A stretch of 25,293 nucleotides of DNA, taken from positions 64,001 to 89,293 of IMG/VR virus record IMGVR_UViG_3300045020_000158; one strand, written 5' to 3'. The notes beneath the pieces were generated by a model. It saw only the letters and a list, made by a program, of their open reading frames with translations, ran no database searches and was not told where the DNA came from. This document shows, piece after piece, positions 1 through 20,638 of the stretch. How positions within the stretch are numbered: the stretch's first letter is position 1; the number at the start of each line of letters is the position of its first letter. The DNA is from a virus. Lineage: Duplodnaviria > Heunggongvirae > Uroviricota > Caudoviricetes. The position numbers and the translations under genes are program-made.

Positions 1-1122
1 CAGATCCGCATCATACCGCAGAGTCGTGACAGGACTCGTGTTCTGATCCTTCAGAAGATTCTTTGCTTCCTTGGCTTGAAGCGTCAATTGTGGCGACGGA
101 ACTTTGCCGAATGTTGGACATAATTCCAGCGCCAACAGTTTTTTCAATGCCCGGTTATAGCCCTGCGGCAAATTGACCAACTGCGTAAGCGATGTGAACT
201 GCGACAGGATCAGATCGGTGTACAGGAATACCTGTCCTGCGATGCTTGGATTCGGATAGACCCAGAGCGTGCCCAGCGGGAAGGTCGGCTGATAAGATGC
301 CAGATATGGCCACGGACCTGGGACGTTCTTGAGTCCGATTTCGTTGTAACGCTCAAATGAGACGAGCTCAAACCAGTAGTCGAGTCCTGTCGCCGCCGAA
401 GTCGTGACGCGCGTGAAGCTGCGCCGGATGCGCGCCGGACGCTGAAATGCGAAGTCACCCGGCGTCGTGTAGGTGATCTGATCGCCCGTCGTCAGCGTCT
501 GACCGGCTGGATTCGACATGGTGACGGTGCTGGTATTGACGTTCGCCGCTGTCGAGGGCGCTCCGGTCAATGCGGGTGTCCAACTGACGCTGCTGTAGCC
601 ATTGGTAAGGGTGCCAGAGCGGAATTCGCCGTCGCTGAAGGAGACCAGATACAGGCCGCTGGGGCCAGCCCAGGGCACGGTGATGACGCCGCTGGTGCCC
701 GTAGGCGCAGCCGTAAAGGTAATCGCGACTGGCGTCGGGTTTGAGCTGAGGGCCGTCACCGTCGTACCACTCGGGATTGAGGCCAATTGGTCCGTCAACG
801 TCGCGCCAATCGACAGAGCGCTTGGAATTGAGGCGCCCGTGATGACATTGTTGTTCTGCGTCGTATATCCAATGAATGGAAGGGCCGCGGTCGGATTGCC
901 GATGGTGTACTGATACTGACCGGGCGTCCATTGAACGATGTTCTCGTTCTGGGTGTAGATGAACGCCTGGTCAATCGAGAGGGAATCCAGAAGGTCATTC
1001 AGGATCTGCATGCAGACCGAGGCGATCTGCGCATTCAACGGCTGGCCCGGCGAATAGGCATTGATGTTGAGCAGAGCCCCCAGAATGATATCGGAGGCAG
1101 TGCTCGTGACGTTGCCGGTCAT
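1..1122 (-). CDS. Head-to-tail adaptor / DNA stabilization protein (P22 gp4-like), 3' end outside the window, >374 aa
   Basis: Missing from the ORF track because it has no stop in the window. ATG at 1122 overlaps the methyltransferase stop (ATGA) and the frame is open to base 1. MTGNVTSTASDIILGALLNINAYSPGQ...ILNDLLDSLS...YQYTIG...RP...LWVYPNP...LPQGYNRALKKLLALELCPTFG matches the adaptor pattern I recognise downstream of P22-like coat genes. Confidence 0.75.
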   Translation of the reverse strand, partial: MTGNVTSTASDIILGALLNINAYSPGQPLNAQIASVCMQILNDLLDSLSIDQAFIYTQNENIVQWTPGQYQYTIGNPTAALPFIGYTTQNNNVITGASIPSALSIGATLTDQLASIPSGTTVTALSSNPTPVAITFTAAPTGTSGVITVPWAGPSGLYLVSFSDGEFRSGTLTNGYSSVSWTPALTGAPSTAANVNTSTVTMSNPAGQTLTTGDQITYTTPGDFAFQRPARIRRSFTRVTTSAATGLDYWFELVSFERYNEIGLKNVPGPWPYLASYQPTFPLGTLWVYPNPSIAGQVFLYTDLILSQFTSLTQLVNLPQGYNRALKKLLALELCPTFGKVPSPQLTLQAKEAKNLLKDQNTSPVTTLRYDADL

Positions 1123-1715
1123 GGGGCTTTGGGGGGTTCCTTGGTGGCGACGCAGGTGGCGATCACGTCGAGAATTGCGTCTTTGTAGTTGGTCATGGCG
1201 AACTGTTGGTATTCAGTGTTGCGCACACTTAGGTCCTGTCGCATCGTATAACCCCATGTGCAATTCCAGTTGCAATCATAGCCCGTTGAGTTCCATTTGA
1301 TGTCGGTGTGCGGAGCGTTCTGCAGGCGCCAGAGGCGGTCCAGATAGTAGAACGCCATTTCGCTGAAGGCTTCCCGATGAGTCGGATCACCATAGTAACG
1401 GTTCGATGCCCAGTGCGGAAAAATCAATGTCATTTTTCCGAACGGCTTCATTACACGGAAGGCTTCGTTGAAAAAATGCGTACGCTCCCATTTGCCTTCG
1501 AAGTTGGTCAGGTGCTCAAGAAAGTGGGATGCGAACAGTTCATCGACGCTATTGTCAGCCCATGGCCATGTTTCGGAACCTACGTCACAGACGACATCGA
1601 CGTTATCGAATTTGATGCGATCTACGTCGGTCCAGCCGTCGCCTTTTTTCGTCGGGCCGGAGCCCAAGTTCAGTTTCAGAATTGTGGACTCATTTGGTTT
1701 CACTACTGCGTTCAT
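1119..1715 (-). CDS. Class I SAM-dependent methyltransferase (Methyltransf_11-like), 198 aa
   Basis: Motif I KLNLGSG, then D-V-D, WPWADNSVDELFASHFLEHL and EAFRVMKPFGKMTL. Confidence 0.9.
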   Translation of the reverse strand: MNAVVKPNESTILKLNLGSGPTKKGDGWTDVDRIKFDNVDVVCDVGSETWPWADNSVDELFASHFLEHLTNFEGKWERTHFFNEAFRVMKPFGKMTLIFPHWASNRYYGDPTHREAFSEMAFYYLDRLWRLQNAPHTDIKWNSTGYDCNWNCTWGYTMRQDLSVRNTEYQQFAMTNYKDAILDVIATCVATKEPPKAP

Positions 1716-2673: not shown

Positions 2674-3414
2674 TTACCAGACATGGTCTGGAGGTCCGAA
2701 ATCACCTCGGAAATCCAGGTGCCCGGATTTTACACTACAATCGACTGCAGCTCTATAACCATATTTTCTTGCGTCGCTCCAAAAATGGAGGTCTTGCGTT
2801 GAGATGCCGCCCTCAGTTTGTGTTTTAAACCAAGGTTTGCGTAAGCGCTCATCTTTAAACATGGAAAGGCGAAACAAACACATTCCCATGCCAAGTCCAC
2901 AAACTTCAACCAAACCACCGTTAGGATCTGGAAGTTGGGGCATGAAGTTAGGTTCCGGAATGGAAGGAGAACCCCAGCCCTGAAAACATCCGCCCGGTCC
3001 CTTACAAAAATACGAGGCGCTCAACGCGGAATACTCCGGATGCTCCTCCATGCGTTCCAACAGTTTCAACAATCCGTCGGATGGAACCAGATTGTCGTGT
3101 TCGAGCGTGAGAATATATTCCCATTGGCTTAAATCCGGGTTCGCCAAGATTTGTTCGATGGCAGTTGAATAAGCAACTCCAACTTCCATTCCCTGAGCAA
3201 GAATCCTAACAACTCCGTTGTTGGGTGGAAAAGCCAGATTCCAATGAGATAAGGCAACCTTAGCCGGAATCAAATCTGCTGCGGGCAGGATAACTACAAT
3301 TCTCTGCCGGCGCCAGGAACCTCCTTTTAAAAGGCGCGCGCGCGTAGCATTGAGATCTTTATTGTGCTCTCCACAAAAATCATCCTGCACAATCAAAGCC
3401 GGTTTATTCGCCAT
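2674..3414 (-). CDS. GT-A fold glycosyltransferase-like protein, 246 aa
   Basis: EYILTLEHDN (DxD-equivalent), CGLGMGMCLFRLSMF, RKPWF, TQDLHF and AVDCSVKSGHLD follow the pattern of phage GT2-like proteins. Confidence 0.8.
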   Translation of the reverse strand: MANKPALIVQDDFCGEHNKDLNATRARLLKGGSWRRQRIVVILPAADLIPAKVALSHWNLAFPPNNGVVRILAQGMEVGVAYSTAIEQILANPDLSQWEYILTLEHDNLVPSDGLLKLLERMEEHPEYSALSASYFCKGPGGCFQGWGSPSIPEPNFMPQLPDPNGGLVEVCGLGMGMCLFRLSMFKDERLRKPWFKTQTEGGISTQDLHFWSDARKYGYRAAVDCSVKSGHLDFRGDFGPPDHVW

Positions 3415-3433: not shown

Positions 3434-4114
3434 TTATTGAACCCACGCAATCGTTGCGGTGTTGGCCGCCGCAATCAGCGCAAATGCCATGACTCCAGTT
3501 TCATTAGCTGTGCCGGCCGTGCCCGGTGCCATGGTCGGTATAGTTCCTCCTGCGCTCGCGTTATATCCTGCAGCCCAAGCTCCGATGCTACCGTTGGTGC
3601 TGGTCAGGGATGCCGGAATCGTAAAGCCACCCGTACCCGCTACAGGCTGCGTATTGGCCGCAGAAGTCGTATCCGTGAGCGCCAACATATAAACTAAGTC
3701 GCCCGCATTACCAACGCTACCACCCGGTGTTAGTGTTTGCCCCACAGTAGGATTCGTCACCAGTTGACTGATAGCTGCTGCTCGCAGAGCCGGAAGCGTG
3801 TCCTCAATGAGGATAGCGACGTAGTCACCCGTGCCGGTGTAGTTCACCGTAAGAGTATGCGTACCCGACGCAACACTACCCGTGGCAATCGCGCAAACCA
3901 GAGCGGTACCACCCGCCGTTAGCGCGAGAACCGGACCAGAAATGGTCCAGATCGTCCCAGCACTGTCAGTGATCGAGGTAATGCCCGGTGTCGTCGTGAT
4001 GTTGAAAAACAGAAATGCGAACAGGCCATGGAGCGCCGTCACCCCGGTCAATGACGGTCCCGAAGTGCCACTGGTATAGAAAGTCCCGAAGTCAACACTC
4101 TGAACGTAACTCAC
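3434..4114 (-). CDS. Ser/Thr/Gly-rich beta-sandwich virion protein with C-terminal TATIAWVQ tag, 226 aa
   Basis: Likely start is GTG at 4114, overlapping the upstream stop (GTGA). The track's longer start at 4258 lies inside the previous gene. Paralogous to 7322..8056 and 8079..8768. Confidence 0.7.
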   Translation of the reverse strand: MSYVQSVDFGTFYTSGTSGPSLTGVTALHGLFAFLFFNITTTPGITSITDSAGTIWTISGPVLALTAGGTALVCAIATGSVASGTHTLTVNYTGTGDYVAILIEDTLPALRAAAISQLVTNPTVGQTLTPGGSVGNAGDLVYMLALTDTTSAANTQPVAGTGGFTIPASLTSTNGSIGAWAAGYNASAGGTIPTMAPGTAGTANETGVMAFALIAAANTATIAWVQ

Positions 4115-5310
4115 GTGAACTGACCCAGTAGCGTTGTAACGTTGCTCGAATTCGTCGCATACAAATACTTTCCGGCCAAAGACTGGTAGAAAACGCCACC
4201 GTGCAGGCGGAATTGCACGGAGCCATTGGTCCACCAACTGGGGCTTTCGATCGTGCACATTGCTTTGCGTGTGCTGCCGGCATAAGTCGCCGAATCGAGT
4301 ATCTCAATACGTGCCGCTGCGCCGACATTTCCCGAACTCGGACCTGCGAGGTAATACTCACTCTGCACCACATAGCAATTGTTATCAACGCTCCAGTTAG
4401 GATCGGTACCGCTCGTATATTGCACAAATCCTGGTAACGTACAGATCTGATAGCCGTTATAGGCGGAACTGCTGGTCACCAGAATCACATTGTTGCTATA
4501 GGCTCCGATCGTCTGGGCGGTCCCATCCCAGACGCCGGTCCAGAGAATATTACCTGTACCGGCGCCTTGGGCTGCATTGATCTGCACCCATTTGCAGTTG
4601 CAGATTGGAACACCGGTTTTAGGATATGGCGTTGAATTCCAAACCCACTCGGTCGCAGTCCCAACGGGTAGATTGCTGGCCAATCCGGGCGCATTGTTGG
4701 ACAACCATTCCCATTGATTCGAGATGGTTTGATTATCCACCGCATTATAAATATCGGTGTCATTGAATCCACCTCCGCCGGTCTTGTCGCAATACCACCA
4801 AGACAGCTTGACCTGTGGAGTGCCCGAAGTTGAAATCGATGTGTAGTTGCAACCCGATGGAAAATAGACAATCTCGGAAACAAATACCTCGGCCATCTGG
4901 GAAGGTGCCGTCACCACGATGCCGCCCCAGCCGCCTCCAGAGCTCACTGTGCCGATGCGGGAATCATTGGACGTGATCATGCCCTGTCCATATGGAAGTC
5001 CTGAGCCACTCACGCAATATGGATAACCGTTGCCATTCGGGACCCACGTGCCACCGGATACCAAGAAATCCGGTCCATTGGCGACAAGACTACCAGGTGT
5101 CTCATTGGCAAAATTCTTATAGGCGATCAACTGAGGCCCGATTGCACCGAAACTGCTGCCACTGATGGTCATCAGTTGGCCTTCGCCGATTCCTGAAGGT
5201 GCGGACAATGAGAAGCCGGACTGCGGAGTGAACCCGATACCGGAGGCGTAGAGATTGCCGGCAGCTCCTGCGATATGCGCACCCACCATGTAAAGGCTGG
5301 GAACGCTCAA
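4111..5310 (-). CDS. Putative virion appendage / carbohydrate-binding protein, 399 aa
   Basis: N-terminal MSVPSLYMVGAHIAG is shared with the GH5 protein. It is followed by an IPT-like segment (GQLMTISGSSFG) and a Trp/Tyr/Asn-rich beta region. The function is inferred. Confidence 0.6.
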   Translation of the reverse strand: MSVPSLYMVGAHIAGAAGNLYASGIGFTPQSGFSLSAPSGIGEGQLMTISGSSFGAIGPQLIAYKNFANETPGSLVANGPDFLVSGGTWVPNGNGYPYCVSGSGLPYGQGMITSNDSRIGTVSSGGGWGGIVVTAPSQMAEVFVSEIVYFPSGCNYTSISTSGTPQVKLSWWYCDKTGGGGFNDTDIYNAVDNQTISNQWEWLSNNAPGLASNLPVGTATEWVWNSTPYPKTGVPICNCKWVQINAAQGAGTGNILWTGVWDGTAQTIGAYSNNVILVTSSSAYNGYQICTLPGFVQYTSGTDPNWSVDNNCYVVQSEYYLAGPSSGNVGAAARIEILDSATYAGSTRKAMCTIESPSWWTNGSVQFRLHGGVFYQSLAGKYLYATNSSNVTTLLGQFT

Positions 5311-5317
5311 ATGCAGA

Positions 5318-7321
5318 TCATCCCAGCACGGCCAACATCAATTGGTAGCCGGTGAACACGCCGCTACGCGCCGCGACGTCAGTCAACACCAGGGTCGCCT
5401 GGGCCGTTGTCGTAATATAGAACGGCTGCGCAGGCGTATAGCTTAGATATGCCGCCGCGCCCGCATTGGAGCCCGATAGCTGCGGTACGGTCATGGTGAT
5501 TGGTCCGACAGTCTGAGAATTGTTGACCGTCCATGAGCTTCCGGAACCACCCGTAATGGTCGTTCCGGACGTTATCCCGGTACCAATGATCAACTGTCCG
5601 ATGGCGAGCGTCCCTGTCACGCCGGAAGTGGTGAGCGCAGTGCCCGAAATCGTGCCCGTAAAGGTCACCGTGGGACTGCTTAATACGGTCGGCGTACCTT
5701 CAGAATCCTGCAATGTATAGCCATAAACGGCAGAATTACCGTTCGCTGCCTTCAGAAACTGCCAACCCAAAAATAAACAGGGTATGGGCAACTTGTACGT
5801 CAATGTGCCGCCGCTGATTGGCCCATCAGAATTTGGTCCCACCATATTGACATACCACGGATAGAGCTTCGCTCCGCAAGTCAATTGCCAGTTGAAATCG
5901 CAATCGACAATCTCGTGATATCCTTGCGTGCTCGCATTGTTCTGATTTTTGCAGCCTCTGAAACGGATCAGCGGCACGCCACCGGAATTAGTGCCGCTCG
6001 TGACAATGAATCCGGCCGCATTGTTGTTCTGGAGAAGCGTGCAATCGTCATATGTGATACTGGACTGGAAGTTATAATCATTCGATGTGTAGTTGTAGAC
6101 GTGTTGTCCAGGAATATCGGATTCGCGAAATGAAATGATCGCGCCCGATGTATTAGAGGACGTGACCGATACATATTGTTGAGTGGCCGGTCTGTTGTTG
6201 ACCTGGGAACTGCCGTCGTAGTTTTTTATTGAAATGTTGCCGATTGGCCACTGCGTCTGCAAAAGCAGAGATTCGTTAGATGAATGTTCGACCCGCAGTC
6301 CGTTGACGCGGAAACTGCATACTCCTTCGGCGTGCGTCGCCCCCATGAGATTGAACAGATAGGTATTGGTCGTCGGCGCGTGATTGCTGACATCACAGTC
6401 ATCAATCGAGAACTGACCACCGTAATAGGCAATGATCCAGGCACCGTTGGCAGCATCCCAGAACTTGCAGTGGGACCACCAGTGATTGACGAACTGATCG
6501 CTGCCGACAACGGCTGTGGAAGTGCCATTCGTATTGGGTGTCACAGCAGATCCGCCGGCAGTCGCTGAGACTACAATCGAAGTCGCGCTCGCCGAGATGA
6601 TGTAATAGGTTGTCGCGGACGAAATATTCCCCACCGTGGTCGAAAAGGTAATCGATGAGCCCAACACGAAACCCAGCGCGGAATTGATCAGCGCGATCGT
6701 TGGATTGCTGGCTGTGAATGTCGCAGTCTGACTCTGCGGAATATGTAGCCACGCCGTTACGGGCGCATCGACCGTGCAGGATTCCCAACGCCATTCACTG
6801 TTGTTATTACCGCCGGCAAGCAACGCGATATACTGCCAGCTACCCTCCCAGGAGACATTTCGGAAACGATAATCCTGGATATTCGATAATCCACCCTGCT
6901 CCAGCGAATGGATGAAATCCGAATTCGCATCCGTGCAGTAAAAGGTCATATCCTCGAAAGTCGGATTGAGCCAATATTTATTGATGCACATCGGGCCACT
7001 GACCGAAGGCACGTAATGAATACGTGTCAGATCGATGCCTGCGCCGCGCCATTTGATACCGATCCCCTTGATGGCAAGACCGGCATTGCCCATGAAGGCG
7101 CCGCTCGTATTGATATAGAAATCGCCGGGACCTAAGGTCAAAGTCAAATTGCCGGTGTCACTGCTGAATCCTGATGGAGCGCTCAATGCCGTCACCGCCG
7201 CAGCCTCAAAAGCTGCAAAGGCTACTGCATCCAATGCTCCTGTGGTATCGCCAGAGGGCACAAGCCAGCTCGTGGCATTCGTACCATACATGCCACCGGG
7301 CAACAGGACAGCCAGAGTCAT
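5318..7321 (-). CDS. Tailspike-like parallel beta-helix (pectin-lyase-like) protein, 667 aa
   Basis: The N-terminal pattern VPSGDTTGALDAVAF...LTLGPGDFYIN...WRGAGIDLTRI and the recurring F-x-D/N-x-x-F strands are typical of Pectate_lyase_3-like spikes. Confidence 0.7.
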   Translation of the reverse strand: MTLAVLLPGGMYGTNATSWLVPSGDTTGALDAVAFAAFEAAAVTALSAPSGFSSDTGNLTLTLGPGDFYINTSGAFMGNAGLAIKGIGIKWRGAGIDLTRIHYVPSVSGPMCINKYWLNPTFEDMTFYCTDANSDFIHSLEQGGLSNIQDYRFRNVSWEGSWQYIALLAGGNNNSEWRWESCTVDAPVTAWLHIPQSQTATFTASNPTIALINSALGFVLGSSITFSTTVGNISSATTYYIISASATSIVVSATAGGSAVTPNTNGTSTAVVGSDQFVNHWWSHCKFWDAANGAWIIAYYGGQFSIDDCDVSNHAPTTNTYLFNLMGATHAEGVCSFRVNGLRVEHSSNESLLLQTQWPIGNISIKNYDGSSQVNNRPATQQYVSVTSSNTSGAIISFRESDIPGQHVYNYTSNDYNFQSSITYDDCTLLQNNNAAGFIVTSGTNSGGVPLIRFRGCKNQNNASTQGYHEIVDCDFNWQLTCGAKLYPWYVNMVGPNSDGPISGGTLTYKLPIPCLFLGWQFLKAANGNSAVYGYTLQDSEGTPTVLSSPTVTFTGTISGTALTTSGVTGTLAIGQLIIGTGITSGTTITGGSGSSWTVNNSQTVGPITMTVPQLSGSNAGAAAYLSYTPAQPFYITTTAQATLVLTDVAARSGVFTGYQLMLAVLG

Positions 7322-8056
7322 CTATTTAATCCATGCCAGAGTTGCCGTGGAAGAGGGCAATCCCTGTGCCTTGAAGGCCATGGTGAAAGCTGCCCAATTG
7401 TGGGTGTTGGTCGTTGAGCCATAGAGAAATGTATCGTTATAGGAACCTGCAGCCTGATTGACGAGAGCGCTCATGGCACCGGGATACGCCGAAGTTGTGC
7501 CGGTGCCGTCTGTAAACGACTGCAGAATATTGTTCCAACCGGCCGTGTCCGTGACAGTATCTCCAGAGGATGTTGTGCCATCCTGTGTGGCCATGATCGC
7601 TGCCAGCAAAAACGCGTCGGCACTTGAAGCCACCGCGGTCGGAGACGGAATTGACGTACCGATCGCTGTATCTCCATTTGTCGGCATCGCGAAATTATCC
7701 AGAACGGCATGATTGCCAGCGAATCCTTCAATCTCACAGAAAAATGCCTGCCCCGTGCCGAAACTCGAGGTATTGACCGTCACAACATGCGTATTGCCCC
7801 CCGCACCATTCACGCAAGCATATGCCGTGAGCGTTTTGCCACCGAAACCGAAAGTTTCACTCGTGCCGATCTGGTTATAAATGTTCCCTGTCGCGACTCC
7901 GCCGACTGTATCGGAAATACCCGTGAAGGTTCCGGTGGTGGATAAAATCACCACAAACGTACTCAAGCTCGTCTGCGTATTGACACTTGGCAATGTCAAC
8001 GTTTCAGTGAAGTTATTCCAGATCAGCGTATTGGCGCCGAGAGTCAGATTCGGCAT
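7322..8056 (-). CDS. Beta-sandwich virion protein with C-terminal TATLAWIK tag, 244 aa
   Basis: Abuts the next gene and has T/G/S-rich composition. Paralogous core and C-terminus with 3434..4114 and 8079..8768. Confidence 0.7.
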   Translation of the reverse strand: MPNLTLGANTLIWNNFTETLTLPSVNTQTSLSTFVVILSTTGTFTGISDTVGGVATGNIYNQIGTSETFGFGGKTLTAYACVNGAGGNTHVVTVNTSSFGTGQAFFCEIEGFAGNHAVLDNFAMPTNGDTAIGTSIPSPTAVASSADAFLLAAIMATQDGTTSSGDTVTDTAGWNNILQSFTDGTGTTSAYPGAMSALVNQAAGSYNDTFLYGSTTNTHNWAAFTMAFKAQGLPSSTATLAWIK

Positions 8057-8078
8057 GGCCGTTCAACTGTTTCGCGAT

Positions 8079-8768
8079 TCAGACGACCCATGCGATGGAA
8101 GCTGTCGCGCCCGGTGCAGTGTAGGTAAATCCGGCAACTGCTGTGGCGCTCTGATTAGAAGGTGTCCAGGCCCACGCGCAGGTCAACGCTGAAGCACTCG
8201 TGATGATCTGCGCATTCGCCTCGCAAACTTCGTAGGTTGCACCGTTCTGTTGGACAACCCAACAGCTATGGCTTGCCGAGTCGCTCAGGGAACCCAGTGA
8301 TTGGAAGCCAGTCGTCGTGCAGTGCATGGCGTCGTTCGATGCACTGCCAGTCTCACCACAGATCGCGATAACCACTTCGCTCGATGATCCGGGAGTATAA
8401 CTTGCACTCGTCGCCGTGGCGGCAGCGCCGTTAAATCCGGTGACTCCTGTTCCTCCAGTACCCGTGATGCCATTCCATTCGCTGATGCCAGCCGTAGAAG
8501 CATCTGGCGTAGTGGCCCATGTCAACGTATGGGTACCTGCATTGGCATTAAGCAAGTAGGCAATTGCAATCGACTGATTCTGTCCATTTCCAGACACCCG
8601 CAGCGTCCAGGTCTGGCCTGAAGAATCGGTTGGGGCTGCGAGCGTGAGGGCGTCATACACGTGATACGTGCTGATCAATGTGTTGCCGGCCGTCACTCCG
8701 GTAATCGTCGGCTGATTGGTGCCGGAAGTTACCGAGTTCGTAGCACCATTCTGAACAAAACCTGTCAT
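8079..8768 (-). CDS. Beta-sandwich virion protein with C-terminal TASIAWVV tag, 229 aa
   Basis: TGATG overlap with the GH5 gene. Same paralog family as the two genes above. Confidence 0.7.
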   Translation of the reverse strand: MTGFVQNGATNSVTSGTNQPTITGVTAGNTLISTYHVYDALTLAAPTDSSGQTWTLRVSGNGQNQSIAIAYLLNANAGTHTLTWATTPDASTAGISEWNGITGTGGTGVTGFNGAAATATSASYTPGSSSEVVIAICGETGSASNDAMHCTTTGFQSLGSLSDSASHSCWVVQQNGATYEVCEANAQIITSASALTCAWAWTPSNQSATAVAGFTYTAPGATASIAWVV

Positions 8769-11206
8769 CAGTTAAACACCGCTACGGTGGTCAGATAATC
8801 CGGAGTCTGACCTCCCGTTGCAGGTTCCTGTGGAGACCAGGTCACCAGTTGCGCGCCGGAAGATACGTACGAACACTGCCCGCGCGCACTGTAATTGTTG
8901 CCATTGGTGTTGAACAACCACATCGACCCCAGATCGAATGATGCGCCGGATAGGGAGTCGTTGACCATCGGGAAGATCGTCCCGGCCACTGACTGCGATC
9001 CCGTCGTGGTGCTTGCGAAGGAAACCGAGCCTGCAGAGGATGCAGTCACGGTATATGTGCCGTTGTACCCGGCAGGTGTGACACCCGCAATAATCACTGT
9101 AGCGCCAACGGGGACGGTGAGACCGCCTCCGAAGGTCACGGTGGCCGTCGTGCCGGTCCCTGAAGCGGCCGTAGTCGCGATAGCCTGAGGCGCCCCTGGC
9201 AACGGGACTGTTGTCGGCGCATAGCTCACATCGTCGAACGTTACCGAAATCATCAGTCCCGCCGCTGAGGGCGAGATCCCGAGGCTGACAACATTCGTTC
9301 CGGGCGCGACGCTCGAGGAAATTGAGATCGCGTGGCCCACCACAGGCGAAGTGGGTGCATTCAGGTAAGCAACTTCGAAAATCGTGAATGACACCCAGTC
9401 CTCCGAGGTCGGAGAACTCGGCGCCATGTTGATCGTATATGATCCGGCGGCGACGTTCGCGCGGTACCAGTGCCCCATGGACTGCGTGCCCTGAATGCCG
9501 TTGTTTTTGCTGACCAGATCATCGATGCGATCCAGCTGGGTATAGACATTTGCCCCGCCTGAATCCGTGCAGCCCATGCTGGGATAAGTCGAAGCAAAGT
9601 TAGGCCACATGCCGACAACATAGATTGTCGAGCCCGCAAGCACAGATTTCGAAAAAGTCGCATTCCACGTCGAACTGTTGACCGAGTTGTGGGCAGTGTT
9701 CTGAAACTGAGCGGATTGGCGTACGTAGCGCGCCGGGCCTGTCTGGTGGGCAGTAAGCCAGTTATACATCTCCTGACCTTCACCCAGGATCGGGGTCGGA
9801 GCAGCTTGCGTCCCCGTCGTCATGTAGTTGTTTGTCGTCGAGCTGCTGGACTGAGGGTTGTTCCATTGCCACGCAATGTAGTGGGCACCAAAGGCATCAG
9901 CCCAATGCTGCATGAACGACATATGCGGCTCGCCGCTGTTGGACCCCGAACCCCCCTGGCCACCGTCTTCCGTGATAATAACCGGCAATCCCGCTGTCAG
10001 GACAGCCTGAGCCCATTGGGTCGATAAGTACGTTCCGCCGCCACTATCGGCGCCGATCTTGCCGTATACGTCGCCGTTGGAATAGTTGTAGGTTCCATTC
10101 GGATAGGGATGCCATCCCACGCAGACTTGTGGGGTTCCCAATGTATCGGTTGGGGTGTACTGGGCGTAATTCTCGATCGACTGCGTAAACGACGGTCCAT
10201 TCGCGATGATGACATTCTGCGCACCGGTCGTGCGAATCGCATTGAGCATCTGCTGATAGCCCGCGATGCCGACGCCGCCGGTGGGGGCCACACTGTAGGC
10301 GCCTATGGCCCAGTGATAAGTAGCGACCGTACCACCGTTCAACATCAAGCCATAGAGTGTCGAGCCGGATGCATAGTCATCCATGTATGGCTCGTTGAAC
10401 AACTCAAACAGAATACCGGCGTTACTGATGCTACCATAGTTCGCAACGCCGCTTCCGGTCCCCGCGCCGGTGGCTGTGAATACTGTTCCGGCATTGTTGT
10501 TGGCCGCGCCCACTGCCGTCCAGTTCGTACTGCCCGGTGTCAGAATCGTATAAACGGTGCCCGAAGAAAGCGCAGTCGCCGCAGTCGTGCTCGAGGTTTG
10601 TGGTGTCGCCTGAGTCCCGAAATAATTGGCGATAGAGGTCCAGAATGTAATGTCAGTGCTGGAATTGGCGAACTCCGGCTGACCATTTGCCAGAATGTAC
10701 TGCGTCGAGCCGCCGAGCGTGACCTGCGGGGCGCTCCAGTGTAGATCCAGAATGACATAGCATCCGACCTGCTGGGCCTGAGCGATGCCGTCGATGACAG
10801 TCTGCTTGTAGTCGCCTTGTGGGTCGGCGAGGACATTCGTCCCCGAAAAACTGGTCGCCGGATTCGCATCCGCAGTCTGACACGTCAAGCCCAACCACGA
10901 TGCCACATTCAACGGCATACGGATGCAATTGGGTTTCCATGTCTGGTAAACGCCCCAGGCCGGCTCTACGCCACCCCATTCATTGACGTTGCTGAATCCT
11001 TGGACGCCGACAAACTCCAGAGCGGACATATCGGCGCCGCGGAGCTGGATCTGGCTGCCGCTCGACCCATAAGCGGCATTGATGAGCGTATTGCCCGAGA
11101 CCGAAACTGCGAGTCCGCTGCCACTGCTGCCACTGCTGGTCGCGAAAACCTTGCCGCTCGCGCCGACAAGGTGCGATCCGATCATGTAGATACTGGGGAC
11201 ACTCAC
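8768..11206 (-). CDS. Multidomain protein with a glycoside hydrolase family 5 (cellulase-like) TIM barrel, 812 aa
   Basis: LRGAD, NCIRMPLN, YVILDLHW, ILFELFNEP (acid/base E272, NEP at 10388-10396), WHPY, VIITEDGG (nucleophile E413, 9968-9970) and YIAWQW are in GH5 order. A C-terminal beta-sandwich follows. Confidence 0.85.
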   Translation of the reverse strand: MSVPSIYMIGSHLVGASGKVFATSSGSSGSGLAVSVSGNTLINAAYGSSGSQIQLRGADMSALEFVGVQGFSNVNEWGGVEPAWGVYQTWKPNCIRMPLNVASWLGLTCQTADANPATSFSGTNVLADPQGDYKQTVIDGIAQAQQVGCYVILDLHWSAPQVTLGGSTQYILANGQPEFANSSTDITFWTSIANYFGTQATPQTSSTTAATALSSGTVYTILTPGSTNWTAVGAANNNAGTVFTATGAGTGSGVANYGSISNAGILFELFNEPYMDDYASGSTLYGLMLNGGTVATYHWAIGAYSVAPTGGVGIAGYQQMLNAIRTTGAQNVIIANGPSFTQSIENYAQYTPTDTLGTPQVCVGWHPYPNGTYNYSNGDVYGKIGADSGGGTYLSTQWAQAVLTAGLPVIITEDGGQGGSGSNSGEPHMSFMQHWADAFGAHYIAWQWNNPQSSSSTTNNYMTTGTQAAPTPILGEGQEMYNWLTAHQTGPARYVRQSAQFQNTAHNSVNSSTWNATFSKSVLAGSTIYVVGMWPNFASTYPSMGCTDSGGANVYTQLDRIDDLVSKNNGIQGTQSMGHWYRANVAAGSYTINMAPSSPTSEDWVSFTIFEVAYLNAPTSPVVGHAISISSSVAPGTNVVSLGISPSAAGLMISVTFDDVSYAPTTVPLPGAPQAIATTAASGTGTTATVTFGGGLTVPVGATVIIAGVTPAGYNGTYTVTASSAGSVSFASTTTGSQSVAGTIFPMVNDSLSGASFDLGSMWLFNTNGNNYSARGQCSYVSSGAQLVTWSPQEPATGGQTPDYLTTVAVFN

Positions 11207-11208
11207 GC

Positions 11209-14199
11209 CTAGGCCGTAACGTTATACAGGTTCACGAACGGTGCAATATTGCCAATCGATCCGCTGATCTGGGATAGGCCGATGGAGGCTGGAAGCGCCG
11301 CCGATGTAGCGCTGTAATAACCGCCGCCCAGAATGACCTGGTTTGAGCCAGCCGTGTTGGAGCCCAGAATACCGTTATAGGTCAATGCGCCTTCGGATGC
11401 GACCACATTGTTGAATGTGGCGTAGTTGAATCCGGAGGAAGCGGTGTTCGACATCAGCGCGAGCCAATAATTTCCCGGAGTCATCGAAGCTGCAAGTGGC
11501 AACGTGAGCCCCTTGATACCCGAATAGATCGAGGCCGAGTTGTTCGAGGTATTGGTCAGCCCGTAGCTTTGCGAGCCTGATGTTGCAAGCGACAGGGTCG
11601 AGGCATTGAGCGTGTAGAGTCCGGCATACACTGAAATGGTATTGCCGTAGCTCGAATTGGTCACGGAGAAGCTGCCCGAGATGAACTCGCGCAGTGCCGA
11701 CACCGACAGATTCGCATCGATCACCATCTGCTGAAGCACGACACTGCCCGCGCCGAGCACGGTCGTCAGTGGTAATCCGTTCAGAATGCCGTTATCCCAG
11801 TATGACAAAGTGCCATAGTTCGGCGCACCGATACTGATGGTGCTGCCGTTGACCGAAATGGAAACCTGGCCGGTGCCGCTGATGCTGGAAGTCGCCGGCG
11901 CCGAAACTTGAATGGAGCCGTTAGTGTATCCCATGGTCATTGCACCCAGGGCATTGAACGACATCGCGCTTTGATTGATCGTGGTGGAACTGTTCTGGGT
12001 CGTATTTCCCAGCGCGTACAAACCAACCGTGGAAATCTGATTGGCACCCGATACCGTAATCGTCTGGGCAGCGCCGGCCGCCGTGCCGACACTCAGAGTA
12101 ATATTGTTGCCGCCGGCAAGGATCACCTGGCCCGAATAGGTTCCGGTATTTCCTGAAGTGTTGCCGATGTTGGACACCCCCACGGACGAGGGCGGCGCCG
12201 AAATCTGGATGCTGCTATTGGAATAACCGATCGTGATTTCGCCCAATCCATTGAAACTCAGTGCGCTCTGATTCAACGTGGTCGAGCTGTTCTGCGTGGT
12301 GTTACCGAGTGCGTAGAGCCCTACGGTCGAGTTGGCAGCCGCTGCACTGGCGGTGATGGTCGAACCGTTCAGCCCGAATGAGACGCCGTTGGAATTGCTG
12401 AAAACTACAGAGCCGAGGTTTCCGGAAGTCGTGCCGGCAGAGAAGTTGACCGAGCCTGCTCCAGCACCGCCGCCCGAGATCGTGACCGCATTACCATTCT
12501 GCGAAAGCGTGATGTTGTTACCGCCCGCGAGCGTCCAGGTGCCCGTACTGATCAGTGCCAGCGTACCAGTCGTATTGCCGGCCAGTGTCGCATCAAATCC
12601 ACCACCACCTGCCCCGCCTGAGATGGTAATGGTCATCGATCCGTTGGCCGCAGTCGATCCCGACAGAGTGATATTGTTACCGCCGGCCAGGACCAGCTGG
12701 CCCGAGGCCAATCCCGTGGTGCCGGCCGTATTGCCCAATGTCGACATACCTGCGGACAGTTGAGTCAGTCCTGTGGTATTGGGCGCCGAAATGACATAGC
12801 TGTTGGAACTCCAGCCGCCGGAAAGAATGCCGGCCAGAGAGATATTGAGCGATGACTGCGCAAATGTGCTGCTGCTCGACTGGCCGGTCGTATTGCCCGC
12901 AAAGTAAACTGCACCGGTTGACGCACCAGAACCGCCCGCGGCAGCCGAAATCGCAAGGTTCAGCCCCGCGCTGTTCAGCGTCATCGACGCGCTCGCGTTC
13001 GTCCCGGCGAACGTCGTGCCGGTCCCGGCGAACTGCGTGCTGTTGTAACTCGCGGTCACGGTCGAACCGTTCATTCCGAACGACAGACCATTGGAATTCG
13101 ATAGAACGATGTTGCCCGAGGTCTGAGAGCTGCCCGCCGCAGAGAGTCCTATTCCGCTTTCGACAGGGCTTGAGAGCGACAATGCCAGACCCGCGCTGTT
13201 CAGCGTCATGGAACCCGACAGGTTGGCACCGTTGAACGTGGTGCCCAATCCCGGCGCGTTCACGCTACCTGTGATGGTGCCATTATTCAGCCCGAATGAG
13301 AGATTGTTCGAATTGCTAAAGGTGACGCCACCGAAAGCGCCCGTCGTGGTACCGGCTGAGATCGAAAGATTGGCAGCGGCGGCGGTATTGGCCGAGATCG
13401 TGACGCTGTTGCCGTTCTGGCTGAGCGTGACGTTGTTACCGCCGGCCAGGAACATCGTGCCGGTACTGATCAGTGCCAAGGCCCCTGAAGTATTGCCGCC
13501 CAGCGATGCATTGATGCCGCCAACCGCCGCAGAGGCCGTCACGGTGCTGCCGTTCATGCCGAACGAGACACCATTGGCATTCGAGAATACGATATTGCCC
13601 GCAGTCTGCGAGCTGCCATTGGCGCTGATGCCGACGCCGCTGACGGTCGGACTCGAGAGAGACAGGGCGAGTCCTGCGCTGTTCAGTCCGATCGTGCCGG
13701 AAACGTTCGTGCCGGTGTAGGTGGTGCCTGTTCCAGCGCCATTGAAGCTTGCCGTGACACCGCCACCGGTCGTCGATCCGAAGCTGATGCCGTTCGAATT
13801 GATGAAATTGACGGTGCCGCTGGTATAGGTCGTATTCGGCAGTTGGATCGCACCGATGCCCGCAGCGGCACCTGGCGTGACAGTCGCGGTGATGACCCCG
13901 GCGGTGTTCATCCCGAACGTCACGCCGTTGGCGTTCGCGAACGAGACCGTGCCGGAGCTCACCGAATTGGTGCCGGCCTCAATGGTCAGCGAACCGTGAC
14001 CGATCGGTACCCACGTGTAGACGCCATTGATGACTTCGATGACACAGAGGCCTTCATCAGAAGTCAGCGCGAGAAAGCCCGGCGCAAAACTCGCAGCCGG
14101 CGGCAGCGTCGCAAACGTGTAGATCACGTTACTGCCGACGACGATGCTTTCCTGCTGACTGTTCGGCGTCAGCTGTACATTCGGTCCCGGATTCGGCAT
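11209..14199 (-). CDS. Long repeat-rich fibre-like structural protein, 996 aa
   Basis: G/S/T/A/N-rich with several interleaved repeat types (F.N.NG.SFG.NGST.TAS, LAGGNN.TLS, VGLYALGNTTQNSSTT). A GAGGA RBS lies upstream. Confidence 0.75.
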   Translation of the reverse strand: MPNPGPNVQLTPNSQQESIVVGSNVIYTFATLPPAASFAPGFLALTSDEGLCVIEVINGVYTWVPIGHGSLTIEAGTNSVSSGTVSFANANGVTFGMNTAGVITATVTPGAAAGIGAIQLPNTTYTSGTVNFINSNGISFGSTTGGGVTASFNGAGTGTTYTGTNVSGTIGLNSAGLALSLSSPTVSGVGISANGSSQTAGNIVFSNANGVSFGMNGSTVTASAAVGGINASLGGNTSGALALISTGTMFLAGGNNVTLSQNGNSVTISANTAAAANLSISAGTTTGAFGGVTFSNSNNLSFGLNNGTITGSVNAPGLGTTFNGANLSGSMTLNSAGLALSLSSPVESGIGLSAAGSSQTSGNIVLSNSNGLSFGMNGSTVTASYNSTQFAGTGTTFAGTNASASMTLNSAGLNLAISAAAGGSGASTGAVYFAGNTTGQSSSSTFAQSSLNISLAGILSGGWSSNSYVISAPNTTGLTQLSAGMSTLGNTAGTTGLASGQLVLAGGNNITLSGSTAANGSMTITISGGAGGGGFDATLAGNTTGTLALISTGTWTLAGGNNITLSQNGNAVTISGGGAGAGSVNFSAGTTSGNLGSVVFSNSNGVSFGLNGSTITASAAAANSTVGLYALGNTTQNSSTTLNQSALSFNGLGEITIGYSNSSIQISAPPSSVGVSNIGNTSGNTGTYSGQVILAGGNNITLSVGTAAGAAQTITVSGANQISTVGLYALGNTTQNSSTTINQSAMSFNALGAMTMGYTNGSIQVSAPATSSISGTGQVSISVNGSTISIGAPNYGTLSYWDNGILNGLPLTTVLGAGSVVLQQMVIDANLSVSALREFISGSFSVTNSSYGNTISVYAGLYTLNASTLSLATSGSQSYGLTNTSNNSASIYSGIKGLTLPLAASMTPGNYWLALMSNTASSGFNYATFNNVVASEGALTYNGILGSNTAGSNQVILGGGYYSATSAALPASIGLSQISGSIGNIAPFVNLYNVTA

Positions 14200-17342: not shown

Positions 17343-18122
17343 TCAGTCGGTAACGTGCTTCCAGACTTTGCGTCTGCGGATGTTGGAAACGAGAACGTTG
17401 GAGATTCCATACTTCTGAGCCAGAAGGACTCCTTGCTCAGTGCTTTTACGAATCTCTCTCACGATTTCCTCGGTGATCTTAGTGCCCATTCCTCTTCTGT
17501 GCGGTCCGCCAGGAGAGTTCTTGGCAATATGATCAACCTGAACATGCGCCCATGATTCCCGATTTTTGATGCTCGTTATGGTCGTGGCAGCAACGCCATA
17601 TGACGCGGCGATTTCCGCATAAGGGCGAGGATCAATGAGAATAGCTTTCGCCTGATTCTCAGTAAGTTTCGCTCTATGCGACATTTCGCCGCGCTGCTCT
17701 GTCCTGCGCCGACCTTTTCTCACCATATCATCGTAATTTTCCCGCAACGTGCCCATCCATAAATGGGCTGGATTCACGCATCGTGGATTATCACAAGAAT
17801 GGCAAATGAACATTCCTTTCGGGATTCTAGATTGCGTGTAGAACGCCCAAGAGAATCGGTGAGCCCGGTGATACATTACACCGGCGACCTCGCCTTGAAA
17901 GACGCCGTAATTATCCTTTTCCACGGCGCCTATCCATTCCCAACACTCGCCCACTTCCTTGTACTGCATCTTGAATCGCTGCTCCGCCGATAGACCCCTC
18001 ATTATGTGATTTTTAGTCGCGAACGGGGAGCCATATCGGCGATTGCGGCGCCAATGCTTGTTGCACATTCCCATGCAACGAGCCGGAAGATCACAACCCT
18101 TACACTGGCAGCTTTCCGCCAT
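17343..18122 (-). CDS. Free-standing HNH homing endonuclease (HNH_3 type) with an N-terminal Cys-rich motif and two C-terminal HTH-like repeats, 259 aa
   Basis: CWEWIGA...YGVF...AHRFSW...CHSCDNPRCVNPAHLWMGTLRENYDDM, then AKLTENQ...YGVA.TTI..IKNRESW.HV and TKITEEI...YGIS.VLV..IRRRKVW.HV. The preferred start is ATG 18122. Confidence 0.9.
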   Translation of the reverse strand: MAESCQCKGCDLPARCMGMCNKHWRRNRRYGSPFATKNHIMRGLSAEQRFKMQYKEVGECWEWIGAVEKDNYGVFQGEVAGVMYHRAHRFSWAFYTQSRIPKGMFICHSCDNPRCVNPAHLWMGTLRENYDDMVRKGRRRTEQRGEMSHRAKLTENQAKAILIDPRPYAEIAASYGVAATTITSIKNRESWAHVQVDHIAKNSPGGPHRRGMGTKITEEIVREIRKSTEQGVLLAQKYGISNVLVSNIRRRKVWKHVTD

Positions 18123-18123
18123 A

Positions 18124-18190
18124 CCAACACCAATCAGGTAGCTATCTACTCTCGGCCGAGAGAAGCATAGTTTACGCTGATTGGTGTTGG
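18124..18190 (-). promoter_or_regulatory. Long hairpin covering the HNH ribosome-binding region
   Basis: Perfect 14-bp inverted repeat CCAACACCAATCAG (18124-18137 and 18177-18190) with further inner pairing (CTAT/ATAG, CTCTCG/CGAGAG). It ends 1 nt before the ATG. Confidence 0.8.
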
Positions 18191-18209
18191 ATGAGCAACG
18201 ATTTGGCAC

Positions 18210-18238
18210 AGTATATCAGCCGAAGATGCGAATACCAA
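18210..18238 (-). promoter_or_regulatory. Candidate sigma70-type promoter for the HNH gene
   Basis: TTGGTA (18238-18233), a 17-nt spacer, then TATACT (18215-18210), with an extended -10 TG supplied by the coat stop codon. Confidence 0.5.
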
Positions 18239-20101
18239 GTGAACGATAAAGGCTTGCAGGCCCGTAAAGTACATCGCCATTTAATGTTAACCAAACTCAT
18301 GTTTGGTCAGCCTTGCGGCTGCTCTGGATTTCGCCAGAGATCAGACTATATCTTGGTCCTTTCGGACCGCTCCCGTTTCGGCCTCGTGGCCTACTCTCTT
18401 GCGAGATAGTCGTTGAAGGTTTCTGCATCGCTGCAGACTTCCCTGCTGATTGTCCAATCCTAGGGATTGTCACCCTCTCGGGTACCCTAGGCTCTAAGGA
18501 GTTTCCAGCAATTAGAGAGCTTTAAACTCGGCTTAATGCAACTTTAACCGAGTCGGTTCTGAGTCGTTATTGATGGTAAATTGCGTCACCATCCGGATCG
18601 ACATCCCCACATCCTCGTCGTCATAAGCCCGCGCCGCAAACTCCACGCCCCGAGGCAGTGGCAGATCCGCGAAGGCCAACGCAAACGCGTACTTGTGGAA
18701 CACCAACCCCTGCGGACTCGCCGTGCTGGCGTACGCCGTTCCACCATTGACCGTAATAGTCGTACCGGTGCCGGTCGGGGCTGCCGTGCAGTTCTGGAAC
18801 TGGCCGGCGCTGATGATCGCGTCGCCAATCGTGAGCTGCAGGTTGCCCGAGCTGTCACTGGTATACACACCGGTCAGCGGGTTGAACGTACCGTTCGTCA
18901 AACTCGCCGGTCCGTAGTAGATGCCCGTCGTCGCGGCACCGTTCGGGGGAGTGATAAAGCCACCGGGCGGCAGAATCACGAACTGCTTCAGCGTGCGTCC
19001 ATACTGCTGACGGCTTTGTGGGTTCACCGGATAGATTCCGCTGAACTGGATCACATCGCCGACCTTAACCACACCGGTTGAGCCGGTCCAACCGGTCGTC
19101 AGGATCGTGCCGCTGGCCGCCCACCCGCTGGTGAGGAGTGCCGTACCGGTCGGTGTCGCAGACACCGTGGGCGTACCGCCCTGAACACCGGTCGTGAACG
19201 ACATGATGTTCTGATCCTCCCACCAGTCCAATCCGGCGAACTCCTTCGCCACCATGCCGCGCTCGTTGAACTCCGAGATGCGCGCCTGGGGATTGAACAG
19301 GCCCTTGATGGCATCCGTTGCCGCTGACATGCTGATCGGGTCCAGCACGCAGTTTTTCTCGCCTTCGGCCGGGCAGGCCTCGGACGCCAGCACCGCACGT
19401 GCATCGGAGAAAATCTTGTAGCTGGCAGGCTGGATGCCCGCGGTGCCCAAGGAATTCGCCGTGTTGAGCGTGCAGAACTGTGCAGTGTCGGAATCAACGC
19501 GGTTCGCCACGGTCGCGACCTGGGGTTTCAGAATGCGCTGCTTGAACATGTCCATGGACAGCGCCAGGTCCTGCGTCGTGAACTGCACATCGACGTGGAA
19601 CTGGTAGTTGAGCACCACCGGGACGTACTGCTCGAACGTGTCTTCCACGTTCAGAGGCGGACCATACGTACCGATGTAGCGGGGCGGACGCCGGACGTTA
19701 ACTGTGTTCGAGGTGTTCAGTCAGCTCATGCTGACCCGTCTTGCGACTGCTGTAAGTTTCCCTACAGTCCAGATCATATCTTGCCTCTTTCGAGGCCCCA
19801 CCGTTTCGAGCCCGTTGACTCTACTTCCTTTCGGAATGATCGTTGAGCGTTCCGTCTTGCGACGGCTTCGTTGCTGATTACCCAATCCTGACGATTGTCA
19901 CCTTGCGGTACGTCAGGCTCTAAGGGCGTTCCAGGCAGTTAGATGGATTTTGAATCGGCCGATTCAACCGATTTTGGCGCCGGTCTGGGCGAACTCGTTA
20001 CTGTATTGGCGGTCTACACGATTTGCGATAACGAGTTCGTTTTCAAGCACCACTAACGCCTCGTTAGTGATGTATGAAATTGTCAGAAGTTGTTGAACCA
20101 A
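18216..20101 (-). CDS. Major capsid protein (P22 gp5-like) in three exons: 20101-19967, 19708-18547, 18277-18216; 452 aa after splicing
   Basis: TTG start 6 nt after TAGGAG. Exon 1 reads MVQQLLTISYITNEALVVLENELVIANRVDRQYSNEFAQTGAKIG. The joins read AKIG|NTVNVRRP and EPTR-C-DVLYGPASLYRSLGIRIFG*, restoring both conserved ends of the P22-type coat. Total length is 1359 nt, in frame. Confidence 0.92.
18278..18546 (-). ncRNA. Group I self-splicing intron 2 (269 nt, no ORF; P7.1/P7.2 present, IA-like)
   Basis: The exon ends in U and the intron ends in G. P1 is ACUCGGU/GCCGAGU with a U-G at the splice site. P3 is GCUCUC/GGGAGC and P7 is GACUA/UAGUC. Core elements: AAUUGCUGGAAAC, AAUCAGCAG, UCAACGACUA, AAGAUAUAGUCU. 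The 5' loop UAAAGU is complementary to exon 3 ACUUUA (P10). Confidence 0.93.
19709..19966 (-). ncRNA. Group I self-splicing intron 1 (258 nt, no ORF; P7.1/P7.2 present, IA-like)
   Basis: The exon ends in U and the intron ends in G. P1 is AAUCGGU/GCCGAUU, P3 is UCCAUC/GGUGGG and P7 is GAUCA/UGAUC. Core elements: AACUGCCUGGAAC, AAUCAGCAAC, UCAACGAUCA, AAGAUAUGAUCU. Multiple GNRA-capped stems. Confidence 0.93.
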
Positions 20102-20115
20102 GTAAAGCTCCTAAG

Positions 20116-20638
20116 TTAGATGTTAACTAAGTGAGCTGAATGATTTACGTGGCCGTTTAGGATCAAAGAAATCAAAGGACGGCTAACACCAAACCAGTCA
20201 GCTATCTGCTGTTGAGTGCAGCCAGAAGCGCGAAGATCACAGATTCTCTCGCCGTCCGTAGCGTTGAGTTTCTGCCATCTCGTGCCTTGACGCCATGCAT
20301 GGCGTCCCTTAGATACCATATCTCGGGAGTTATCCATTGCCGTACCGAGGAACAAATGGTCAGGATTAATGCAACGAGGAACATCGCATTTGTGTAAAAC
20401 CATTTTGTCAGAGGGAAGATCGCCATTTGCAAGAACCCATGCAACACGATGGGCATATCTCATATATTGCCCCTTGCTGAGTAGGATTTGACCATATCCC
20501 CTATCATTAACCGTTCCATTCCAAATAATGCACCCGTTTTCATTAGGGGGGGCCGTATTTGGTATGAAAGCGCTTAATGCAACGATCTGGAATATCCGAC
20601 CGCTTAAGAATGCGGGCGAATCGATTGCGATTAGTCAC
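20116..20638 (-). CDS. Free-standing HNH homing endonuclease split by a +1 frameshift at CCC-TAA (20552-20543); about 173 aa if read through
   Basis: GTG at 20638, 8 nt after GGAG, reads MTNRNRF...KRFHTKYGPP*. The +1 frame continues NENGCIIWNG...GYGQI...YAHRVAW...VLHKCDVPRCINPDHLFLGTAMDNSRDM plus a C-terminal HTH. The track ORF 20116..20463 lacks the N-terminal part of the domain. Confidence 0.85.

Follow-up and report, generated by a model that had tools for sequence, protein, structure and literature searches.

Two large proteins encoded behind the fibre gene of a virus assigned to the Caudoviricetes (IMG/VR record IMGVR_UViG_3300045020_000158, 89,293 bp) begin with one common peptide, the N-tag, and three small proteins encoded among them end in another, the C-tag. 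We analysed the final 25.3 kb of the record (positions 64,001 to 89,293), a stretch of 25,293 nucleotides here called the window; every gene discussed lies on its minus strand, and coordinates are those of the window unless stated otherwise. Both peptides are real and widespread elements, which are conserved at the protein level, stand at the terminus next to flexible linkers and occur on unrelated bodies in many phages. We regard it as an even call that they serve a modular appendage of the virion as portable docking peptides, which would most likely attach to the repeat-rich fibre and possibly to its repeated shaft; both the binding of the tags as such and the identity of the socket we infer. 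According to this reading, the larger accessory proteins would be glycan-active bodies (a glycoside hydrolase family 5, GH5, domain and a lyase-like jelly roll here, an apiosidase-like hydrolase and beta-helix proteins in relatives) that carry an N-terminal peptide of about 22 residues and then a Gly/Ser tether. The small lectin-like beta-sandwich modules would carry a flexible linker and then, at the C-terminus, a hydrophobic peptide with Ala-Trp at its centre. Both kinds of peptide would fit into sockets of one scaffold, for which the fibre is the most likely candidate, and new bodies would be swapped in by recombination with the virion left unchanged.

Shared termini in the accessory gene cluster

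The N-tagged proteins have 812 residues (8768..11206; N-tag, Gly/Ser linker, GH5 domain and a distantly module-like C-terminal domain) and 399 residues (4111..5310; N-tag, linker, a small Ig-like part and a concanavalin-like jelly roll). Their first 23 residues, encoded at 11138..11206 and 5242..5310, are identical at 13 and similar at 21 of the 23 positions (BLASTP E 3e-6); the next-best segment between them reaches an E of 0.057 and nothing else is common to both. The preliminary description of this stretch was thus right in noticing two dissimilar large proteins with nearly the same start, as their bodies are unrelated. The first opens with GTG, 2 nt past the stop of the gene for the 996-residue fibre, and the second with TTG, 7 nt past the stop of a gene for a 667-residue protein. 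That both use non-ATG starts, as was also described, is supported by the relative locus L009, where the same peptide is started by ATG at the equivalent place. Public gene calls for the two proteins (P0029 and P0173) begin at an internal ATG and give 805 and 392 residues with the first 7 residues lost; owing to non-ATG starts after translational coupling, the N-tag is therefore hidden from protein databases. A fusion of the fibre with the N-tagged gene by frameshift or readthrough was considered and rejected, as the offsets differ and an in-frame stop follows.

Homologues of the 399-residue body (46-73% identity) align from about residue 30 on. Four of them (P0174, P0175, P0179 and P0180) have a Tat-like signal peptide at the position which the N-tag holds in the phage protein. 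These signals are of the twin-arginine type, and the homologues may be secreted bacterial proteins which served as the source of the phage cargo, or the reverse may hold.

The C-tag ends three diverged proteins of about 230 residues as TASIAWVV, TATLAWIK and TATIAWVQ, giving the pattern (T/S)A(T/S)(I/L)AW(V/I)x. Module 1 has 229 residues (8079..8768, tag at 8082..8105), module 2 has 244 (7322..8056, tag at 7325..7348) and module 3 has 226 (3434..4114, tag at 3437..3460, 20 nt upstream of a glycosyltransferase-like, GT-like, gene). The three align at 18-32% identity, module 2 being the most diverged copy with 18% identity to module 1. A six-frame regular-expression scan of the whole 89-kb genome recovered the two N-tags and the three C-tags and no further copy. 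The gene for the 812-residue protein overlaps that for module 1 by ATGA at 8768, and the gene for the 399-residue protein overlaps that for module 3 by GTGA at 4114..4111; the latter overlap therefore sets the third small protein at 226 residues and not at the 274 residues of its longest open reading frame (ORF). The stop of the module 2 gene abuts the ATG of the gene for the 667-residue protein. Both the common ending of the three small proteins and the translational coupling of each N-tagged gene to a gene for about 230 residues, two points of the first account, are thus borne out.

In the AlphaFold2 model of module 1, which has a predicted local distance difference test (pLDDT) score of 93 and consists of two beta-sandwich halves, the confident fold covers residues 1-216, and the tag block lies outside the fold with a pLDDT of about 52 and no secondary structure. 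The burial of the tags in a larger shared fold, which the preliminary description had named as a ground for giving up its idea, is thus not what this model indicates for the C-tag. Gly, Ser, Thr, Ala, Pro and Asn abound in the linkers ahead of the C-tag.

Recurrence of the peptides on unrelated proteins

We found at least 25 relatives with tags, all of them metagenomic. A word search with the first 40 residues led to L009, in which a 607-residue beta-helix-type protein with an almost identical N-tag is encoded right after the fibre gene, along with a glycine-rich protein whose last residues are AVVAWLT. With the GT-like gene as anchor we collected 80 IMG/VR loci (L026-L105), and in about 20 of these 80 a protein ending in x-A-W-(I/V/L)-x-(A) is encoded directly upstream of the GT-like gene; L001, L005, L007 and L017 are further loci with the C-tag. 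A loose regular expression for the ending matched 35 of 2,089 same-strand ORFs as against 5 of 1,767 opposite-strand ORFs. A hidden Markov model (HMM) of the N-tag found matches in 12 loci, solely at the N-termini of genes following the fibre, and in each case the tag directly precedes a Gly/Ser run. All these 12 loci also encode a C-tagged protein, and C-tagged proteins are also found without N-tagged cargo, for example in L102.

Clustering by BLAST sorts the 15 N-tagged cargos into 12 groups (GH5, apiosidase-like hydrolase, CHB_HEX_C, DUF5123 and others) and the 28 C-tagged modules into 17, one of which is the glycine-rich protein of L009. The recurring gene order is fibre, N-tagged cargo, C-tagged module, GT-like gene and methyltransferase. 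The closest relative, represented by L042 and L020, is 90% identical to this phage in the adaptor and 64-95% identical in the small head-region proteins, and in it two accessory genes with different bodies replace all six. Both tags are nevertheless retained, the N-tag at 73% identity and the C-tag on a module ending in NTASIAWVS. That the tags are kept while the bodies differ (18-32% identity or none in the window) supports the portable-connector reading, and the occurrence of the tags beyond this genome and on unrelated bodies, the absence of which was to have counted against that reading, is established across metagenomic loci.

DNA pattern scans of IMG/VR contributed less. The pattern for the exact N-tag was too strict, as relatives have MSNIYMIGSH and more diverged forms, and its two matches, both chance ones in ORFs of 27 codons, were rejected. 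Three of the 14 matches to the C-tag pattern are real (L017, L020 and L022), the rest being short chance ORFs. In L087, L100, L101 and L105 small proteins encoded directly after the fibre gene have another N-terminal motif, MA(Y/F)(Y/L)LPWLSN, and these loci form another branch of such cassettes.

We also considered that the conserved ends might be features of the DNA, such as linkers for recombination where modules meet or signals that couple translation, with the peptide likeness as a by-product. The tags do stand exactly at the gene borders where cassettes exchange, and overlap with the start codon of the GT-like gene would explain the frequent last Ala of the C-tag. Yet third codon positions differ between the two N-tag copies and are saturated in the C-tags, where all four Ala codons are used, the hydrophobic positions are filled by many different codons and the residue classes are nonetheless kept, and the tags are also retained where another gene with another ribosome-binding site follows. 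This synonymous divergence, claimed from the start, speaks for conservation at the level of the protein and makes a DNA-level origin the least probable of the explanations we weighed.

Protein bodies and their tail classes

The 812-residue protein belongs, by its profile match, to glycoside hydrolase family 5 (Pfam PF00150; 73.8 bits against a curated cut-off of 23.5, E 2e-20, in two stretches). A core common to the three small proteins and recurring at the C-terminus of the GH5 protein had been proposed. Among the small proteins it holds at their 18-32% identity; for the GH5 protein there is modest support from a profile-profile hhalign comparison with the module core (E 8e-4, probability 24%, 167 columns). 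When the module profile was aligned with single sequences, hhalign gave no significant match to the GH5-protein C-terminus or to the 399-residue protein. Judging from the profile-profile result, the GH5 protein probably ends in a domain distantly related to the small modules.

By profile match and predicted two-sandwich fold, module 1 is a member of an uncharacterised family, here the D family, which has 4,870 cluster representatives at E<=1e-3 over about 215 residues; 28 module homologues gave E values of 1e-137 to 6e-3. Foldseek matched the model in BFVD at E 1.6e-12, and the fold recurs in C-terminal parts of mycobacteriophage 'minor tail proteins' and, among AFDB clusters, in cellular proteins fused to cellulase, SGNH, S74 or dockerin domains. 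Foldseek found no match for the module in the PDB at E<=1e-3, PDB sequence searches with the module profile, the fibre and the 399-residue protein gave nothing meaningful, Pfam and PHROGs gave no match for five of the six accessory proteins, modules included, and a Megablast of the region against phage GenBank records gave none either. A wide VIA search with the module yielded generic jelly-roll matches at Z below 8, including the receptor-binding protein (RBP) head of Tuc2009 and TNF-like lectins.

The model of the 399-residue protein (pLDDT 65) shows a concanavalin-like jelly roll, for which VIA gave a Z of 12.2 to a PL14 alginate lyase (root-mean-square deviation 3.4 over 215 residues); this predicted body is nearest to polysaccharide lyases and may be called lyase-like. 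Its ending LLGQFT was examined as a second tail class and rejected, as it belongs to the conserved end of that body family. The 667-residue protein (5318..7321), which is without either tag, found no match in a Pfam scan. In the ESM Atlas it matched the Pect-lyase_RHGA_epim cluster (structure TM 0.50/0.75, feature score 0.90), a lead by which it is probably a depolymerase-type body, a right-handed parallel beta-helix like those of the pectate-lyase superfamily.

Standalone D-family members (P0002-P0172; L002, L003, L106 and L108) carry several discrete C-terminal tail classes besides the Ala-Trp (AW) one, namely LMGQxLT, PF..FFVN(D/E)xxxQ, PWQQxGxMGxIxAQ, SLMGHGIxVxA and xFVLP. In P0002 the core is 86% identical to the window module and the tail is of another class; near-identical cores with different tails argue for a partner outside the module, and the pattern fits, as far as the sequences tell, a display head with a C-terminal anchor. 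Long D-family members have the module at the N-terminus and other parts after it. Tail classes track phage lineage and not core similarity, and many of the long members end in an acidic run and then LLLL. In four phage lineages (L003, L005, L106 and L002) a tail-less paralogue of the module, either standalone with 254-258 residues or as the C-terminal domain of a larger protein, directly precedes the tailed module; its counterpart in the window lies at 8771-9742, which suggests that tail-less and tailed modules form a conserved pair.

These tail classes bear upon another explanation, in which the tags would be elements of self-assembly, through strand-swap oligomerisation or as folding aids, rather than connectors to a scaffold. 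Terminal strands often mediate trimer contacts, jelly-roll receptor-binding heads are usually trimers, the nearest solved folds include the Tuc2009 head and TNF-like lectins (all at Z below 8), and the tag is unstructured in a monomer model. But a part that packs against its own body would be expected to change along with it, whereas the same tag is found on bodies of different sequence families, including the glycine-rich protein, and near-identical cores such as that of P0002 have different tail classes. We therefore hold self-assembly to be improbable.

Genomic setting, candidate sockets and known connectors

In the direction of reading the order begins with a P22-type portal (E 7e-141), a scaffold protein and a P22-type coat gene, followed by seven small ORFs, the fibre, the six accessory genes, the GT-like gene for 246 residues (2674..3414), a NUMOD3 endonuclease gene and the methyltransferase (MT) gene for 198 residues (1119..1715; Pfam Methyltransf_11). 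The GT-like protein is 53-71% identical in 80 viral contigs and marks the conserved right-hand border of the cassette, and the MT gene accompanies it in 83 of 85 loci. Just outside the window start lies a gene for a 391-residue protein with a weak match to head-tail adaptor profiles, and further out one for a 579-residue Hc3/gp10-type protein and then one for an ejection protein. At genome positions 52273-56151 (L008:3274-7152, minus strand) adjacent proteins of 652 and 638 residues have the common N-terminal motif ..NG.(P/F)LSYGK(L/V)YTY, one with a Gly_rich_2 match and the other with a weak C1q match; we take these two for the probable true tail fibres, which would have their anchor in common. 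From this gene order and the likely tail fibres elsewhere it follows that the tag cassette stands between the coat and adaptor genes, outside the tail-fibre locus.

Some further features of the record were noted. Its ends, 1-224 and 89070-89293, are identical over 224 bp, so that the assembly is circular or terminally redundant. The P22-type coat match at 17343-20463 spans only part of the profile, and two HNH endonuclease genes flank the coat gene. A 235-residue protein among the seven small ORFs and the GT-like protein match the same PHROG, phrog_1574, whose function is unassigned.

The position among head genes raises the possibility that the N-tag serves for packaging or targeting, much as the capsid-targeting sequence of T4 internal proteins does, and would direct its cargo into the prohead or another compartment. 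A short N-terminal peptide common to unrelated proteins encoded there, in place of the signal peptide of cellular homologues, is what such a signal would look like. Against it, the cargos are glycan-active enzymes and lectin-like bodies, which would act outside the particle, the N-tagged gene always comes after the fibre gene and often overlaps it stop to start, and no prohead protease able to cut off such a signal was found among the window ORFs scanned against Pfam. We think this very unlikely.

The fibre (11209..14199) is the candidate scaffold, and has an N-terminal domain (about 1-70), a shaft of many short NG(V/I)SFG-type repeats (about 70-790) and a C-terminal knob (792-996). The knob aligns with the fibres of L001, L005 and L009, and its HMM matches the fibre C-terminus in 40 of the 80 GT-anchored loci. 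Only the fibre, the GT-like gene and the MT gene accompany the tags throughout, and no small head protein co-occurs with them beyond the closest relative. The same C-tag goes with unrelated coat families, P22-type here and Phage_capsid_4 in L001, and the N-terminal domains of the fibres differ; the capsid and the virion-proximal end of the fibre are thus unlikely sockets. Among loci with at least 5.5 kb of sequence upstream of the GT-like gene, a repeat-shaft fibre was found in 12 of 14 with the C-tag as compared to 13 of 37 without it (Fisher p 0.0016, uncorrected for relatedness), and this enrichment makes the repeated shaft the best candidate for the socket. Of the first proposal, that the tags dock interchangeable modules onto a fibre or the capsid, the portable terminal elements on swappable cargo have thus held up and the capsid has become an improbable scaffold.

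Several points weigh against docking on the fibre. No binding partner was found for either tag. A complex prediction with three knob copies and the first 60 residues of the GH5 protein scored 0.00, with both folds poorly modelled from their own small alignments, and so speaks neither for nor against such docking. N-tag similarity is independent of knob similarity (Spearman rho -0.16 over 36 pairs), so that the knob is not supported as the N-tag socket, and no covariation of the N-tag with the knob or with the GT-like protein was found. Knob similarity follows GT similarity (rho 0.72). The low confidence of the N-tag in the 399-residue model was to be expected in any case, because the alignment was without N-tagged homologues. 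The T4gp10-like branching domain was not found by Pfam in the fibre or its neighbours, a search with sequence profiles only, and the presence of the tagged proteins in the virion we infer from gene position. Lastly, wherever the sequence reaches far enough, the last C-tagged gene stands immediately before the GT-like gene, and this strict adjacency leaves room for a functional link of the C-tag to the GT-like protein rather than to the fibre.

Such a link would make the AW tag a recognition or hand-over element for the GT-like and MT enzymes, marking the module, or the linker rich in Ser, Thr and Asn before the tag, for modification. The stop and start often overlap (GC-ATG-A), the adjacency is also seen in loci found independently of the GT-like gene (L001, L005, L007, L009 and L017), and these two enzymes are the best-conserved genes of the cassette. 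However, of the three tagged genes in the window only one adjoins the GT-like gene, the next gene after the tagged P0106 is one with a PASTA domain, and many tags have no Ser or Thr near Ala-Trp (GGGPIAW and VVPGIAW, for example). Most GT loci are without any tagged protein, from which it follows that the enzyme does not need the tag, and a fixed gene order with accessories inserted between fibre and GT-like gene would also explain the adjacency. We consider a role in modification unlikely, and return to the tags as docking peptides.

Peptides of this kind have precedents at the N-terminus. In known phages secondary RBPs are held in place through docking peptides of between 7 and about 30 residues, such as the hepta- and undecapeptides of K1E, K1-5 and SP6 on the gp37 adaptor and the 'conserved peptide' of Klebsiella phages KP32, KP34, Menlow and PhiK64-1 on a T4gp10-like branching domain (PMC6872550), and the principle has been validated experimentally (PMC13352976). 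As in these systems, a short lineage-specific N-terminal peptide stands on otherwise unrelated enzymatic spike or fibre proteins, the bodies are exchanged and the peptide kept, and the genes adjoin that of the presumed anchor protein. A conserved N-terminal peptide on at least two unrelated RBP-type proteins, as in the branched systems of Latka et al. 2019, is present here in 12 loci and on 12 body clusters. In contrast to them, the N-tag is unrelated in sequence and followed by a Gly/Ser tether, Pfam detects no T4gp10-like domain, the locus lies between coat and adaptor genes and not in a tail-spike locus, and there is a second, C-terminal connector on a different module class. Moreover, docking has been validated by experiment in those phages, whereas here it is proposed on the strength of sequence and models.

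The C-tag may be compared with T4 Hoc, which has a conserved C-terminal anchor and variable display domains (PMC10385173). In both, the anchor is C-terminal and the variable display part N-terminal, and on the Hoc side too there are phages with several proteins in which one anchor is combined with different cargo, a hydrolase among them. The sequences show no similarity, though, and the Hoc anchor is a folded domain which binds the centre of the capsid hexamer, whereas here 5-8 residues follow a linker, and the occurrence of the tag with unrelated coat families speaks against the capsid as the socket. A folded and conserved domain for capsid binding at the C-terminus, like that of Hoc, was not seen, the tag being unstructured in the model and the module without a match in Pfam or PHROGs.

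A more general likeness, in short terminal connectors to one scaffold, is that to the adenovirus fibre, whose N-terminal tail motif binds the penton base, and to the cellulosome, where dockerin-cohesin assembly joins many glycan-active enzymes to one scaffold. Sequences and organisms are unrelated in these cases, and dockerins are folded calcium-binding domains, unlike peptides of 8 residues. Read as plugs, the front, N-terminal peptide is of a kind known in principle, and the C-terminal AW peptide is new, no description of it having been found; the early statement that no named system has such tags was too broad for docking at the N-terminus, and stands in that neither the AW tag nor this particular N-peptide is among the described ones.

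As a further and speculative step, which we would sooner doubt than believe, the cassette could be a phage 'cellulosome', in which a glycosylated fibre attached to head or neck offers, along a repeated shaft, many sockets for N-terminal hairpin-type and C-terminal Ala-Trp plugs, and the tail classes (AW, LMGQxLT, FFVNDxxxQ, PWQQxGxMG and others) form a general C-terminal address code. If so, a single particle could present varying combinations of polysaccharide-degrading enzymes and lectin modules, and the code would set, in many phage lineages, the site of the virion to which a display module goes. The tail classes, together with relatives that swap all accessory genes and keep the tags, offer a testable route to how virion accessories are addressed. 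Automatic gene calls that truncate N-tags at an internal ATG hide such systems, which calls for a correction of annotation. In laboratory phages, N-terminal plugs are already put to use for rational display and in work on host range. A C-terminal Ala-Trp peptide of 5-8 residues after a linker would, if it is indeed a plug, be a new type of connector beside them. If the tags are connectors, uncultured phages would re-equip their appendage with glycan-degrading and glycan-binding parts and leave the particle unchanged.

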